In this document: one piece after another, positions 3,001 through 6,000 of the stretch
How positions within the stretch are numbered: position 1 is the stretch's first letter
Layout of the letters: each line of letters begins with the position of its first letter
DNA from: a virus
Taxonomy: Duplodnaviria > Heunggongvirae > Uroviricota > Caudoviricetes
Direction: 5' to 3' (one strand)
Length of the DNA stretch: 8,019 bases
IMG/VR virus record: IMGVR_UViG_2541047932_000023
Made by a program: the position numbers

Positions 3001-6000
3001 TCTTATTGCTGATTGTAAAAATGGCGGTGGTTATGCGTGATATTTATCTTGAAACAATAGACCGCGCATTTATTGCACTTTCTCACAGTGAAAACATGAT
3101 GGAAATATTGCGCATATGGCTTGAAACACTTGGCGACAATGAACGCAACAAACAAAAATCAAGAATTGTCACGGCATTAATAACGCTTCTTGAGCCTGTA
3201 ATAATGGAACTGCAAGAAATATACCTATTGCACGACAGATATAAAGAACAGCACACCGGAGAATAAAAATAATGAAACTTAAATATTCTGGCTTAACTGC
3301 CAGCGGCAAAACTCGCACTAAATTCATGTGCGGGGATATTTACCGCGATAAGTACGGCGGCACGGTAATGATTAAGGGCGTGGAGGAACGGCGCGTAACT
3401 TACCGCCGTGAAGGCTACGAATATGATTGCGTTATGCCTGTTTATCAGTTCGACCGTGATTTTTCTCTGGTACAGGCAGCGCCCCGCAGTAAGCCAACCA
3501 GCAGGGAGAAAGCACGCGCCAATATTCAGGAAATAAGAAAGATGTTGAACGTATTCAGGGGTAAAAAATGAAACTTGCACCGAACGTAAAACTATTACCG
3601 AAAGACAAATACACCGAAGCAATTATTTTCGCGGGGAATGATGCGCACTCATTTGCAGAGCACTACATCATTGCACAGGCCAAAAAAGCAGGCGATCCAG
3701 TCCCTCCCGTTTATCTGGGGCGTTATCAGTTAAGCGAACTGGATAACCTCCAGATTGTTGATGATGGGCGATACAGGGCGACGGTGATACGCGCCGGAAA
3801 TATTGAAGAGCCGCAGATGTTAACCATCGCCACGAAACTGGCGATCTCCGGAGTCCAGGAGGCGCGGCTACTTTCTGAAAATTTCGAATTGCTGGAGGAA
3901 TGGAGCGACCAGCTTCCACGGCTTAGGGAGGCATGGGAACGCGGGGAAAGCCTGGTCATAAAAAAAATCCCCCAGCGAAAAACCACGCTACCGATGAGCG
4001 TTGGATCTACCGGATACGACACACAGCTTGATTACGTGGTAAAGGGGATTATTCCGGCATCGTCGCTTTGCAGCATATACGGGGCGAGCGGTTCCTATAA
4101 ATCATTCCTTGCCGGATCGTGGGCGTGTCACGTTTCCACGGGCCGCCAGTGGGGAGGCCGCATGGTGGCGCATGGCGCTGTTCTCTATGTGGTTGGTGAA
4201 GGCGGTATCGGCGTTCCGCGTCGTGTAAAAGCCTGGGAGGTTGTGCACGGTGAGCAGGTGAAAAATCTGTATCTGGTAAACCGTCCCATCTTTCCGGCTG
4301 TCCCGCTTGATGTTGATGAACTGGTTATTGCTGCCAGCCAGGTTGAGCGGGAAACGGGTAAACCGGTTCTAATGATTATTCTGGACACGCTGGCGCGTTG
4401 CTTTGGCGGCAATGACGAAAATGATTCCCGTGACATGGGGGCGTTTATCCGTGGATGTGACGAACTGAAACGACGCACAGGGGCCACAGTGCTGGTTGTT
4501 CACCATTCCGGCAAGGATGAAACAAAGGGCGCGCGTGGTTCCAGTGCATTCCGTGCATCGCTGGACGCTGAATACAGGATCCGCAGAGAGGACGCAGGAA
4601 GCGAAGCGCTGGTCATCTCATGCACCAAAATGAAGGACGCGGAGGAACTCAAAGAGGCTGCCTATGATTTGCGGGTTGTGGAGCTTTTTACCGACGCTGA
4701 CGGCGAATTAATTACGTCGCTGGTGGTGGTGGATGAGCCGCGCCCACCCGTTGAACTGGAGCGCATCGAGGAGGCAGGCAACAAGACGGAAAACCATACC
4801 GCGCTATGGGGGTGCATCCGTTCACGCACACAGAACGGCGACAAGTGCACGATCCCGCTGTTACGTGATGACATGAAAAAGCTGGGGTATGAAATGAAAA
4901 ACTTCCGGCGCTGGCTGTACAAGCTGGAAAAAGATGGGGTTATTCGTATCGATGGGGATGATGTAGCGCCGCTATAAAAGTGAGGAGCAAAAGCGAGGGG
5001 GATAGAAAGAGGGCCAAAATTAGCCCGCTCTCCCTCACTTTTCGACCTGTATACAGCCTCAAAAGCGAGGGGTAAAAAAATACTTATGAAACACACACAT
5101 AGAAAAACCGAAAATCCCAACTGCGACGAAGTGAGACGCTTGAAAAAGTGAGGCGAAAAAGTGAGAGGTTGCGAGAAATGACCCAAAAACGCAGAGACAG
5201 AACAGAGCCAAAATATAAAGCGTTAGACATGACTGAGCACACCTTAAAGGTGGCAATCAGAACGATAGACCGCCACACGCGGGAAGGATACGCGAAGGAA
5301 CATCCCGACCTGATAAGCGCATTCATGACCACGGCGGCGGCAAACTTTGCCACGCTGACAGAACGGGAGATTGCCGAAGCGGAACAGGTAACAACCATCA
5401 ACGTTAAAACCGGAGAGGTGAAATCATGACAGCACAGATAGCCGCTTACGGGCGGCTGGTGGACGACCCGCAGGTAAAACAGACCAGCAAGGGCACACCG
5501 ATGACGCTGGCGCGTATGGCGGTATCACTGCCATGCAGTCAGGCACAGGACGGACAGGCGACGTTATGGTTATCGGTCATCGCATTTGGCAAACAGGCCG
5601 ACCAACTGGCAGGACATGAGAAAGGCAACGTAATCAGCTTATCCGGCGTGATGCAGGTCAGTCAGTGGACCGGACAGAACGGGGAGACGCGTCAGGGTTA
5701 TCAGGTCATTGCCGACAGCGTAATCAGTGCGAAAACGGTGCGACCAGGCGGGAACAGACGCAAGACCACAGGCACACAGGGTAATCAGCCACCAGCTGGA
5801 GGCGATGATCCTTACGGTGATGATATTCCGTTCTGAACGCACAGGCCGGAGCAATCCGGCTTTTTTTCAAACCCTCATATCTTCAAAAATGGTTAATTAA
5901 TGGTAATCTATCGAAAATACTGATTATGCGATGATAAGTATCAGGAGGAAACAAAGTGGAAGAGATAAAGCAAAGCGCTACCGTGATGATTGATCATGAA

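Follow-up and report, generated by a model that had tools for sequence, protein, structure and literature searches.

The island and the intergenic region downstream of rep

The window, which is the whole stretch of 8,019 nucleotides that was analysed (IMG/VR record IMGVR_UViG_2541047932_000023), is a phage-inducible chromosomal island (PICI), a phage satellite, which in E. coli is integrated at yejM/tRNA-Pro. In complete genomes, an insertion of 8.8 kb separates tRNA-Pro/yejM from yejO. According to Pfam, NCBIfam and PHROG assignments, the island carries int, alpA-like, Icd-like, DUF4222, rep, ssb, terS-like and capsid-like genes, all of which are encoded on one strand; the Pfam scan of the window covered ten ORFs. 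The island thus possesses the features by which PICIs are recognized: an integrase at the left end, an alpA-type regulator, genes that all run in one direction, an att site of its own and a size in the range of 8-15 kb, in addition to a replication module and genes for phage interference and packaging. PICIs frequently transfer genes for virulence and defence from one enterobacterium to another, in a cycle that includes their amplification from an origin of their own. The near relative EcCI11128, which has the same gene order, is given as a PICI in Table S1 of PMC6092414.

The gene rep (3568..4977, plus strand) encodes an initiator-helicase of 469 amino acids with an AAA_25 core, whose relatives in RefSeq are annotated as 'helicase RepA family protein'. 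It is followed by a gene for an 83-amino acid protein (phrog_1231; 5178..5429, plus strand), which is conserved beside both types of Rep discussed below, and by the gene for the island SSB (5426..5836, plus strand; Pfam SSB, E 2.6e-15), a likely replication accessory protein. The gap between rep and the 83-amino acid gene is filled with short repeats. A preliminary description of this DNA had counted at least eight AAAG(T/C)GAGG-like repeats in both orientations, including an identical pair of 12 bp, and had interpreted them as iterons of a putative replication origin. Indeed, the motif AAAGYGAG has six exact matches in the 8,019-base window (4977, 4990, 5034 on the minus strand, 5062, 5145 and 5158), all of them confined to 4977-5165, whereas 0.56 matches are expected from dinucleotide shuffles. 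The window's five perfect copies of the 9-mer AAAG[T/C]GAGG likewise all lie in the array, accompanied by near copies with one mismatch (5158-5166) and two mismatches (5128-5136); with up to two mismatches allowed, approximately 0.86 matches would be expected per stretch of this size. From its first base, which lies within the rep stop codon (TAA, 4975-4977), to its last, 1-12 bases short of the start codon ATG at 5178, the array occupies the entire intergenic gap.

The iterons form two sets, a left one (4977-5070), which includes one inverted copy, and a right one (5128-5177), in which all copies are direct. The left set begins with iteron 1, AAAGTGAGG (4977..4985, plus strand), which shares one base with the rep stop codon, so that the array lies directly 3' of the initiator-helicase gene, as had been described. 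It continues with iteron 2, AAAGCGAGG (4990..4998, plus strand), the degenerate iteron 3, AAAGAGGGC (5006..5014, plus strand), which stands where relatives have their third left-hand copy (family offset approximately +28), iteron 4, AAAGTGAGG on the minus strand (5033..5041), and iteron 5, again AAAGCGAGG (5062..5070, plus strand). The right set, also on the plus strand, consists of iteron 6, GAAGTGAGA (5128..5136, two mismatches), iteron 7, AAAGTGAGG (5145..5153), and iteron 8, AAAGTGAGA (5158..5166), whose GAGAGG is located at Shine-Dalgarno distance from the ATG at 5178. A possible last degenerate copy, TGCGAGAA (5170..5177, plus strand), is found where relatives carry a final GGTGAGG or GGTGGGG. 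Seven of the repeats are therefore clear, and a count of eight or more depends on one or two weak copies, AAAGAGGGC and TGCGAGAA. Both orientations do occur, yet only a single copy, iteron 4, is inverted. The identical pair exists as well, but it measures 13 bp instead of 12 bp (CAAAAGCGAGGGG at 4988-5000 and 5060-5072).

The two sets flank an A-rich spacer (5073..5127), a candidate unwinding region, whose A/T-richness is real, though moderate (67% A+T). Its segment 5075-5114 reaches 75% A+T compared to a window mean of 50.6% and so ranks among the 0.9% of 40-nt windows that are richest in A+T, and the spacer has little single-strand structure. The region as a whole shows a strong excess of A over T (AT skew 0.5-0.6). 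DnaA boxes were searched for by eye within 5088-5100. A second element, the TGTATACA box (5048..5055), forms the centre of an imperfect 40-bp palindrome, which was detected in a repeat search (5032-5071; hairpin z = -2.6). Neither a sigma-70-like promoter nor a plus-strand terminator was found in 4700-5500, and an Rfam search of the whole window returned nothing at E<=1. The only hairpin that could be considered as a terminator is weak, lies on the minus strand (5011-5026) and is absent as a conserved feature in relatives; readings of the gap as a promoter, a terminator or a member of an RNA family were rejected.

Conservation of the array and exchange with rep

Repeats in the equivalent position were compared in 78 distinct regions downstream of rep from E. 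coli, Salmonella, Xenorhabdus, Kosakonia, Pectobacterium, Serratia, Pantoea, Morganella and other genera. Across approximately 80 related loci from many genera, the positional layout is kept while the core of the repeat, GTG-N-GG, varies. Repeats are shared at offsets +1..30, followed by an inverted copy at +41..70, which is present in nearly all relatives, by repeats at +71..90, by a gap with 61-79% A+T (+91..+130) and by further repeats at +131..200; another copy in inverted orientation occurs near offset +138 in some relatives. A YRTATAY box is found at offset +55..+74 in 76 of the 91 RepA-type loci, irrespective of the iteron class. The spacer is less uniform: in several genera, a conserved element containing G+C takes the place of the A/T-rich sequence, and the spacer may thus not be the site of unwinding. 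One spacer element, CATTACTGG, is common to the tested origin of EcCICFT073 and to RepA-type arrays of other genera, where it occupies the same relative place. These data also bear on the trivial explanation that a purine-rich word happens to cluster in an intergenic region rich in A. The strong skew of A over T (0.5-0.6) speaks for it; however, none of 200 shuffles reached six matches (the maximum was three), the positions are conserved in approximately 80 loci and the copies change in concert, which leaves coincidence with a negligible probability.

The array appears to be inherited together with rep. Sister islands (L007-L010 and L098) encode an unrelated Rep of the D5_N/DUF5906 (D5/SF3) type, and islands of this kind carry GGTAGA iterons in the equivalent gap. 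The homology between the window and these islands breaks at 3644 and resumes at 5171-5176, which indicates that rep and the gap have been swapped as a unit. It is therefore proposed, from sequence comparison, that Rep from approximately residue 26 onward and the putative origin travel together as one exchangeable cassette (3645-5170), with the TGCGAGAA site at its right edge and the 83-amino acid gene outside of it. One identical DUF4222 protein, WP_000770163.1, accompanies three iteron classes, and it is thus not the iteron reader. A Rep-iteron module of this kind is also present on a circular Klebsiella record of 16,971 bp, for which the PLSDB typing line gives no plasmid replicon type. Among complete E. 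coli genomes, 1637 of 5426 match the region 4700-5430, many of them via the flanking gene only, and 633 hold most of the stretch.

Rep domains and probable recognition of the iterons

Rep can be divided into an N-terminal domain (residues 1-145), a RecA-like AAA_25 core of the RepA type, a linker (approximately residues 386-404), which is a low-confidence part of the prediction, and a predicted C-terminal winged helix (approximately residues 408-469). The core is matched by Pfam AAA_25 at residues 151-318 (E 1.4e-41), while no match to the SF3 or MCM families was obtained. In a comparison of Rep with solved structures, the sole match was a marginal one to RSF1010 RepA (1g8y; residues 153-323, E 0.049). 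Rep has no match to a primase family, no detectable primase motifs and no zinc ribbon. Among 1099 phage records, none covers 80% of Rep; they match the helicase core only, and no full-length relative is found there. Both end domains were modelled with AF2 on shallow alignments of 12-13 sequences (pLDDT 78-80). In these models, residues 408-469, encoded by 4789..4974 on the plus strand and proposed here as the iteron reader, adopt a winged-helix fold in which residue 445 is the N-cap residue of helix 3, whereas the N-terminal domain is predicted to resemble the TOPRIM domains of primases rather than a DNA-reading fold. A profile comparison with the true Toprim region of Toprim-bearing relatives gave nothing (probability 0.3%).

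The preliminary description had considered the extra N-terminal domain to be the natural iteron binder of the putative origin. The 145 N-terminal residues indeed come on top of the helicase core, no function has been assigned to them, and no other part of Rep varies as much between the alleles of E. coli, whose N-terminal types share 42-56% identity. However, the type of N-terminal domain and the iteron class are uncoupled. Locus L006 combines a window-type N-terminal domain (94-98% identical) with GTGGG iterons, P0001 likewise has a window-type N-terminus and GTGGG iterons, and P0022 has the other N-terminal type together with GTGAGG iterons. Relatives of 680-700 amino acids start with a zinc ribbon and a Toprim domain and still use the same GTGAGG or GTGGGG iterons. 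Furthermore, the window's N-terminal domain also heads the D5/SF3-type Rep of EcCICFT073-like islands (44% identity, E 1e-25), whose iterons are the unrelated GGTAGA. Since the domain does not track the iterons and also heads a Rep class with unrelated iterons, the idea is unsupported; given its predicted primase-TOPRIM-like fold as well, an origin that is read by the N-terminal domain is very unlikely.

The iteron class is instead predicted by a single residue of the putative winged helix. Residue 445, which in the window is an asparagine (codon AAC, 4900..4902, plus strand) and is located just before the predicted recognition helix (residues 446-455), varies in step with the base at position four of the iteron core, GTG-N-GG: asparagine occurs with A, histidine or lysine with G, and serine or glycine with C, in 85 of 86 loci. 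Of approximately 310 alignment columns, no other shows a conditional entropy of zero for this base. On a tree of the helicase core, residue and base switch approximately 11-12 times, and the switches coincide; between lineages, all iteron copies within an array change together. Six predictions were fixed beforehand, five of which came out clear-cut, while the sixth concerned a mixed array in which the predicted base is in the majority (5 GTGAG vs. 2 GTGGG). Within this set, the last 48 residues of the Rep proteins of P0058 and L004 differ solely by asparagine vs. histidine. The array of L097 mixes two iteron classes. As codon and iterons are less than 300 bp apart, the co-variation could partly reflect co-inheritance; the column test argues against mere co-inheritance, without excluding it. 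Sequence co-variation and structure prediction together suggest that the iterons are probably read by the C-terminal winged-helix domain of Rep rather than by its N-terminal domain. A C-terminal winged helix is also the iteron-binding part of SaPI Reps (PMC9371898).

The rule further bears on the possibility that the repeats are a packaging signal of the pac or cos type, or that they are bound by a different protein of the island, for instance AlpA, the terS-like protein or the DUF4222 protein. Recognition sites of small terminases are often repeated short motifs, and a terS-like protein is encoded on the island. However, the repeat sequence is predicted by a Rep residue, and the identical DUF4222 protein coexists with three iteron classes. 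In addition, the same Rep-iteron classes recur across different packaging modules, namely terS-like, lambda-like capsid plus decoration, and ClpP-capsid fusion modules. An array that serves packaging or another island protein is therefore highly improbable.

The gap as a putative replication origin

On the basis of sequence and by analogy with known systems, the region 4977-5177 is most likely the replication origin of the PICI, and this assignment can be made with good confidence. It is supported by the conservation of the layout in approximately 80 loci and by the co-variation of the repeats with the adjacent Rep. The following course of events is proposed. After induction, the winged-helix domains of Rep would bind the 9-bp iterons, which are spaced by about one helical turn, and the inverted copy of the left set would form a palindrome around the TGTATACA box. 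The loaded array might then distort the double helix and open it, with the A-rich spacer (5073-5127) and the TATA-like centre of the palindrome as the two candidate sites. The Rep helicase ring would load itself without a separate loader, and the island SSB (5426-5836) would coat the strands. Priming would be left to the host, as Rep shows no detectable primase motifs. Specificity would be set largely by Asn445, reading the A of GTGAGG, while natural His/Lys variants would use GTGGGG and Ser/Gly variants GTGCGG or GTGCGC. The more detailed combination, in which N445 directly reads the iteron base, an SF4-type helicase loads itself via a tethered winged helix and the conserved TGTATAYA centre of the palindrome, instead of the A/T-rich spacer, is a possible loading site, is put forward tentatively, with a likelihood slightly below even. 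In the literature searched, no replication or binding experiment was found for this type of Rep, and a search for a characterized RepA-type PICI Rep or its origin yielded nothing beyond PMC6092414 and the SaPI work.

Alternatively, the repeats could be operators for Rep or another regulator, which mainly serve the transcriptional or translational control of downstream genes (the 83-amino acid gene, ssb and the packaging genes) or copy-number handcuffing rather than initiation. Plasmid iterons do double as regulatory sites, and the final iteron extends into the ribosome-binding region of the gene starting at 5178. Moreover, a protein bound to the array would stand in the path of transcription, because the genes are unidirectional and no terminator lies between rep and the next gene. 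However, the gap contains no promoter-like site, and the array is exchanged with rep and not with the downstream genes it is supposed to regulate. The layout also fits the origins described for PICIs and SaPIs, and in EcCICFT073 plasmid maintenance depended on the equivalent gap (PMC6092414). The repeats could also serve as operators and as an origin at once; a purely regulatory array is considered unlikely.

With the origin assignment, the window offers a well-defined candidate origin for the RepA-helicase class of PICI replicons, a class that roughly one in three complete E. coli genomes carries, although many of the matches comprise the flanking gene only. The correspondence of one amino acid to one base is simple and falsifiable; it could predict cross-talk between co-resident islands and help to build orthogonal helper-dependent replicons. 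If it is true, a single scaffold would have given rise to three or more orthogonal pairs of Rep and origin, and an exchange of residue 445 would re-target the replicon. The idea that iteron classes are a device for keeping co-resident islands apart was rejected: several genomes harbour two or three islands of the same class, such as Xenorhabdus bakwenae (L021/L022/L087), Xenorhabdus TCT-1 (L017/L020) and Pectobacterium B2J-2 (L059/L060).

Comparison with known replication modules

The window is an ordinary example of an already published layout and thus adds no new principle. According to Fillol-Salom et al. 2018 (PMC6092414), the origins of all Gram-negative PICIs described there lie 3' of rep and consist of an AT-rich region with a set of iterons on either side; the two iteron sets around the A/T-rich spacer of the window conform to this arrangement, as they do to that of SaPIs (PMC9371898). 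In PMC6092414, the rep-ori segment of EcCICFT073, the one island covered by this functional test, is established as a replicon by plasmid maintenance. The Rep of EcCICFT073 belongs to a different class than that of the window, being a D5_N/DUF5906 (SF3-type) protein of 584 amino acids with GGTAGA iterons. The published island EcCI11128/EcCI11368.1 is closer: it has the att region tRNA-Pro/yejM, the gene order, a RepA-family helicase, a gap of approximately 200 bp with two iteron sets around an A/T-rich spacer and the 83-amino acid gene in common with the window. EcCI11128 differs in its specificity allele, a histidine with GTGGGG instead of N445 with GTGAGG, and in the type of its N-terminal domain.

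SaPI Reps are self-loading initiator-helicases with 6-12 iterons just downstream of rep, an AT-rich centre and matched specificity of Rep and ori (PMC9371898). The SaPI Rep-ori system of Staphylococcus aureus (Ubeda 2007/2012, as cited in PMC9371898) resembles the window in its C-terminal winged helix, which is a predicted one in the window's Rep, and in the iterons that directly follow their own gene. In contrast, the motor of SaPI Reps is an AAA+ domain, either SF3 or MCM-like, whereas the window's Rep has an AAA_25, RecA-like motor of the RepA/DnaB type, and the RecA-like motor would be expected to translocate with opposite polarity. The iterons of the window are also longer (9 bp compared to 5-6 bp in SaPIs), inverted copies are restricted to a single one in the left set, with no clear inverted copy in the right set, unlike the SaPI description, and no sequence similarity was seen between the window and SaPI modules. 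Self-loading via a tethered winged helix has so far been characterized for AAA+ (SF3/MCM-like) initiators of satellites and viruses.

Another enterobacterial phage satellite, P4, uses the alpha protein, a single polypeptide that combines a helicase with C-terminal origin binding and recognizes repeated octamers. Alpha is a primase and SF3-type helicase, and it requires a second repeat cluster, crr. The window differs from alpha and ori-crr in that it has a single repeat cluster in 8 kb, a RecA-like motor and no match to a primase family. P4 is compared with PICIs in PMC6092414.

With regard to the motor, RSF1010 RepA (IncQ) is the closest solved structure to the window's helicase core by sequence, and both are AAA_25 proteins. 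RSF1010 leaves iteron binding to a further protein, RepC, and its RepA is devoid of a DNA-reading domain; the window's helicase, unlike RSF1010 RepA, itself bears a predicted winged helix. The primase-helicases T7 gp4 and Twinkle have no origin-reading winged helix either, and the window's Rep lacks a zinc ribbon. Iteron plasmids of the Rep_3 type (pPS10, F, R6K and RK2) encode a separate initiator with two winged helices and no motor and rely on the host proteins DnaA and DnaB. None of the ten ORFs scanned with Pfam matched a plasmid initiator family, and in contrast to the Rep_3-type replicons, the only candidate initiator of the window is a helicase fusion.

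The iteron array downstream of rep

AAAG(T/C)GAGG 9-mers fill the space from the stop codon of rep (ORF 3568-4977), which encodes the 469-aa initiator-helicase Rep, to the ATG at 5178. The 8-mer AAAGYGAG has six matches in the 8019-base window, every one of which lies inside 4977-5165, whereas 0.56 are expected by chance, and none of 200 dinucleotide-preserving shuffles reached six. With mismatches allowed, seven clear iterons are found at 4977, 4990, 5033(-), 5062, 5128, 5145 and 5158, compared to approximately 0.9 chance matches in a stretch of equal size at the same stringency. 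A degenerate copy (5006-5014) and a possible last copy (5170-5177) occupy places at which relatives carry a good one. The repeats and the A/T-rich segment 3' of the helicase gene, which had been proposed in the preliminary description, are thus confirmed with small corrections: instead of at least eight copies, there are seven clear ones besides the degenerate and the possible one; both orientations occur, but the inverted one is represented by a single copy, 5033(-); and the identical pair, CAAAAGCGAGGGG at 4988 and 5060, is 13 bp rather than 12 bp long.

The inverted iteron and the following direct copy form an imperfect 40-bp palindrome (5032-5071) with the centre TGTATACA. The left iteron set (4977-5070) is separated from the right set (5128-5177) by an A-rich spacer with 67% A+T, whose best 40 nt reach 75% compared to a window mean of 50.6% and belong to the top 0.9% of the window. 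Within 4975-4985, the rep stop codon and the first iteron share one base. A small hairpin, GGGCCAAAATTAGCCC at 5011-5026, has a weak terminator score on the minus strand and shows no conservation among related islands. No support was obtained for reading the array as a promoter, a terminator or a known RNA; neither a promoter nor a plus-strand terminator was found in the gap between rep and 5178, and transcription of the operon must therefore cross the putative origin. In addition to an origin role, bound Rep could possibly act as a regulator, since the last iteron (5158-5180 region) overlaps the ribosome-binding region of the 5178 gene, where it gives GAGAGG at Shine-Dalgarno distance from the ATG.

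Conservation of the layout among related islands

The window represents nearly an entire 8.8-kb island, which occupies the interval from tRNA-Pro/yejM to yejO on E. coli chromosomes. The best match has 97.9% identity across 97% of the window, and 165 genomes carry most of it. All genes are located on one strand and encode a tyrosine integrase, an AlpA-like regulator, an Icd-like ORF, DUF4222, the helicase, an 83-aa protein, an SSB, a small-terminase-like and a capsid-like protein. This organisation is that of Gram-negative phage-inducible chromosomal islands (PICIs) described by Fillol-Salom et al. 2018 (PMC6092414), whose Table S1 contains the yejM-site PICIs EcCI11128 and EcCI11368.1. EcCI11128, taken from its genome sequence, has the gene order of the window and a RepA-family helicase. 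The main site of difference between the window and its best matches is the 289-aa ORF at 1960-2829, whose match to Icd-like cell-division inhibitors is confined to the final approximately 50 residues, and for which the annotation of close relatives gives two Icd-like genes or pseudogene fragments. The island ends shortly past the small-terminase-like gene (6445-6933, 162 aa), which matches Terminase_2 over residues 3-53 only, and the capsid-like gene (7096-8019, 307 aa), which has a weak match to Phage_capsid (E 1e-6). Both proteins probably serve satellite interference or packaging redirection and do not constitute a full packaging module.

Regions downstream of rep were collected from E. coli relatives, 80 loci of other species, seven contigs chosen by protein and one plasmid record. 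In 78 distinct regions, the repeats are found at matching offsets from the rep stop codon. Two or three copies in direct orientation lie within +1..30, one in inverted orientation within +41..70 and another direct one within +71..90; an interval with 61-79% A+T at +91..130 then separates them from three to five further direct copies within +131..200. Chance clustering can be excluded by this conservation of positions together with the shuffles. Genera with this layout include Escherichia, Salmonella, Xenorhabdus, Kosakonia, Kluyvera, Pantoea, Pectobacterium, Serratia, Erwinia, Morganella and Klebsiella. The repeat core GTG-N-GG varies among lineages, and N is uniform across the copies of a locus; such concerted change is the selection that one sequence-specific binding protein would be expected to impose.

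Two further elements were observed. A YRTATAY box is present at +55..+74 past the rep stop in 76 of 91 loci with a window-like (RepA-type) Rep, in many genera and with any iteron class. Its window member, TGTATACA at 5048-5055, lies midway between the two iterons that face each other head to head and might serve for loading or melting, or be bound by a host factor. A spacer element of approximately 25 nt between the iteron sets, CTGAAAsCCnCGyCATTACTGG, is shared by origins of the tested EcCICFT073 type, which have a D5-type Rep (L007-L010, about 175-225 nt past the rep stop; L098, 6425-6470), and by RepA-type origins of several other genera (L035, L039, L041, L046, L048, L049, L082 and L086, offset about +80..+120; L100, 4965-4990). 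It is absent from the window, which has the A-rich spacer in its place.

Rep residue 445 and the variable iteron base

A single residue of the C-terminal-proximal motif K-x-F-x-R-W-L-x-K-L, Asn445 in the window (codon AAC, 4900-4902), predicts the variable iteron base. Across 86 loci, Asn is accompanied by GTGAGG (34 loci), His (15 loci) and Lys (28 loci) by GTGGGG, Ser with a one-residue insertion by GTGCGG (7 loci) and Gly by GTGCGC (1 locus); the lone deviating locus has a truncated ORF and very few repeats. Among about 310 alignment columns of the helicase core and C-terminus, column 445 alone leaves zero uncertainty on the base, compared to 0.26 bit for the runner-up. With a neighbour-joining tree built from the helicase core, parsimony requires 12 residue changes and 11 base changes, and the joint pair needs just 12; residue and base switches therefore coincide. 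Six predictions from residue to base were set down prior to inspection of the arrays, five of which came true cleanly and the sixth, for the Rep P0073, by majority, as the array on its contig L097 is mixed (5 GTGAG vs 2 GTGGG). This array (2110-2330), which also contains one CTGAGG, lies beside a Rep of the Asn type whose C-terminal tail is divergent, and may represent a hybrid origin or one in decay. The clearest prediction concerned P0058, which is identical to the Rep of locus L004 over the last 48 residues apart from an N where L004 has H: six GTGAGG and no GTGGGG accompany P0058, and L004 has GTGGGG. Residue 445 and the repeats are less than 300 bp apart, and co-inheritance therefore adds to the association; however, the column test and this near-isogenic pair argue against it as the sole cause.

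The iteron binder had previously been sought in the N-terminal domain of Rep, against which three comparative observations speak. In E. coli alleles, the N-terminal type does not go with the iteron class: the type of the window (94-98% identity) occurs with GTGGG repeats in L006 and P0001, and the other type with GTGAGG in P0022. In relatives of 680-700 aa, a zinc ribbon and Toprim_3 precede the same core, and the iterons are the same. Furthermore, the N-terminal 145 residues of the window Rep resemble the N-terminus of the D5-type Rep (44% identity, E 1e-25), whose repeats are unrelated.

DNA homology between the window and islands with a D5-type Rep covers DUF4222 together with 77 bases at the start of rep, ends at 3644 and returns at 5171-5176, just past the last iteron; thus, Rep from approximately residue 26 and the whole gap swap as a unit. 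Flanking genes were rejected as specificity partners, as the identical DUF4222 protein WP_000770163.1 accompanies GTGAG, GTGGG and GGTAGA arrays. A role of the repeats in packaging, or as target of another island protein, fits neither the co-variation of iterons and Rep nor the varied packaging modules that adjoin the same Rep-iteron classes. Some genomes contain two to three islands sharing Rep residue and iteron class (Xenorhabdus bakwenae L021, L022 and L087; Xenorhabdus sp. TCT-1 L017 and L020; Pectobacterium sp. B2J-2 L059 and L060), and the specificity classes therefore do not simply serve to keep co-resident islands apart.

Putative replication mechanism and comparison with known systems

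Beyond the anatomy and conservation of the array, its co-variation with Rep and the fold predictions, we infer a mechanism in which tethered winged helices of Rep would bind the iterons to the left and right of the spacer, which follow each other at intervals of about a helical turn. Strand opening would occur either in the A-rich spacer, where there is little single-strand structure, or in the TATA-like centre of the palindrome. The RecA-like ring would next be self-loading, assisted by the island SSB, and the host would provide priming. The PICI-like record CP018459.1 (L100), a circular Klebsiella pneumoniae sequence of 16,971 bp filed as a plasmid, encodes an integrase, Rep, capsid, head-tail adaptor, terminase and tape measure. 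Its Rep ('RKSF' type) is encoded at 5081-6445(-) next to nine TGCGGC iterons (4875-5080). The PLSDB typing line of the record contains no plasmid replicon type. The record may represent an island that replicates after excision, and it gives circumstantial support for autonomous replication.

For origins of Gram-negative PICIs, PMC6092414 reports two sets of iterons on either side of an AT-rich region 3' of rep. It has been shown that the rep-ori segment of EcCICFT073 sustains a temperature-sensitive plasmid only if rep and ori are both intact (PMC6092414), and in SaPIs the C-terminal winged helix of the Rep helicase binds 6-12 iterons just 3' of its gene (PMC9371898). The earlier argument from layout agrees with these descriptions and therefore fits existing knowledge; the island family and the origin layout are already published. 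The window array has the position and layout of a PICI rep-ori module and putatively acts like a PICI/SaPI origin. However, the tested Rep of EcCICFT073 is a 584-aa D5_N/DUF5906 (SF3-type) protein, followed by a 288-bp gap with GGTAGA repeats, unlike those of the window, and no experiments on the RepA-helicase class were found in the searchable literature. The interest is modest and lies chiefly in the single-residue/single-base rule and a putative RepA-class replicon. A strict SaPI-type Rep system is rejected, as the window motor is AAA_25/RecA-like instead of AAA+ SF3 or MCM-like, and the right-hand iterons are not inverted. The window also differs from the P4 ori/crr system by its single repeat cluster and different motor, and from the IncQ arrangement because the helicase itself bears the predicted reader domain.
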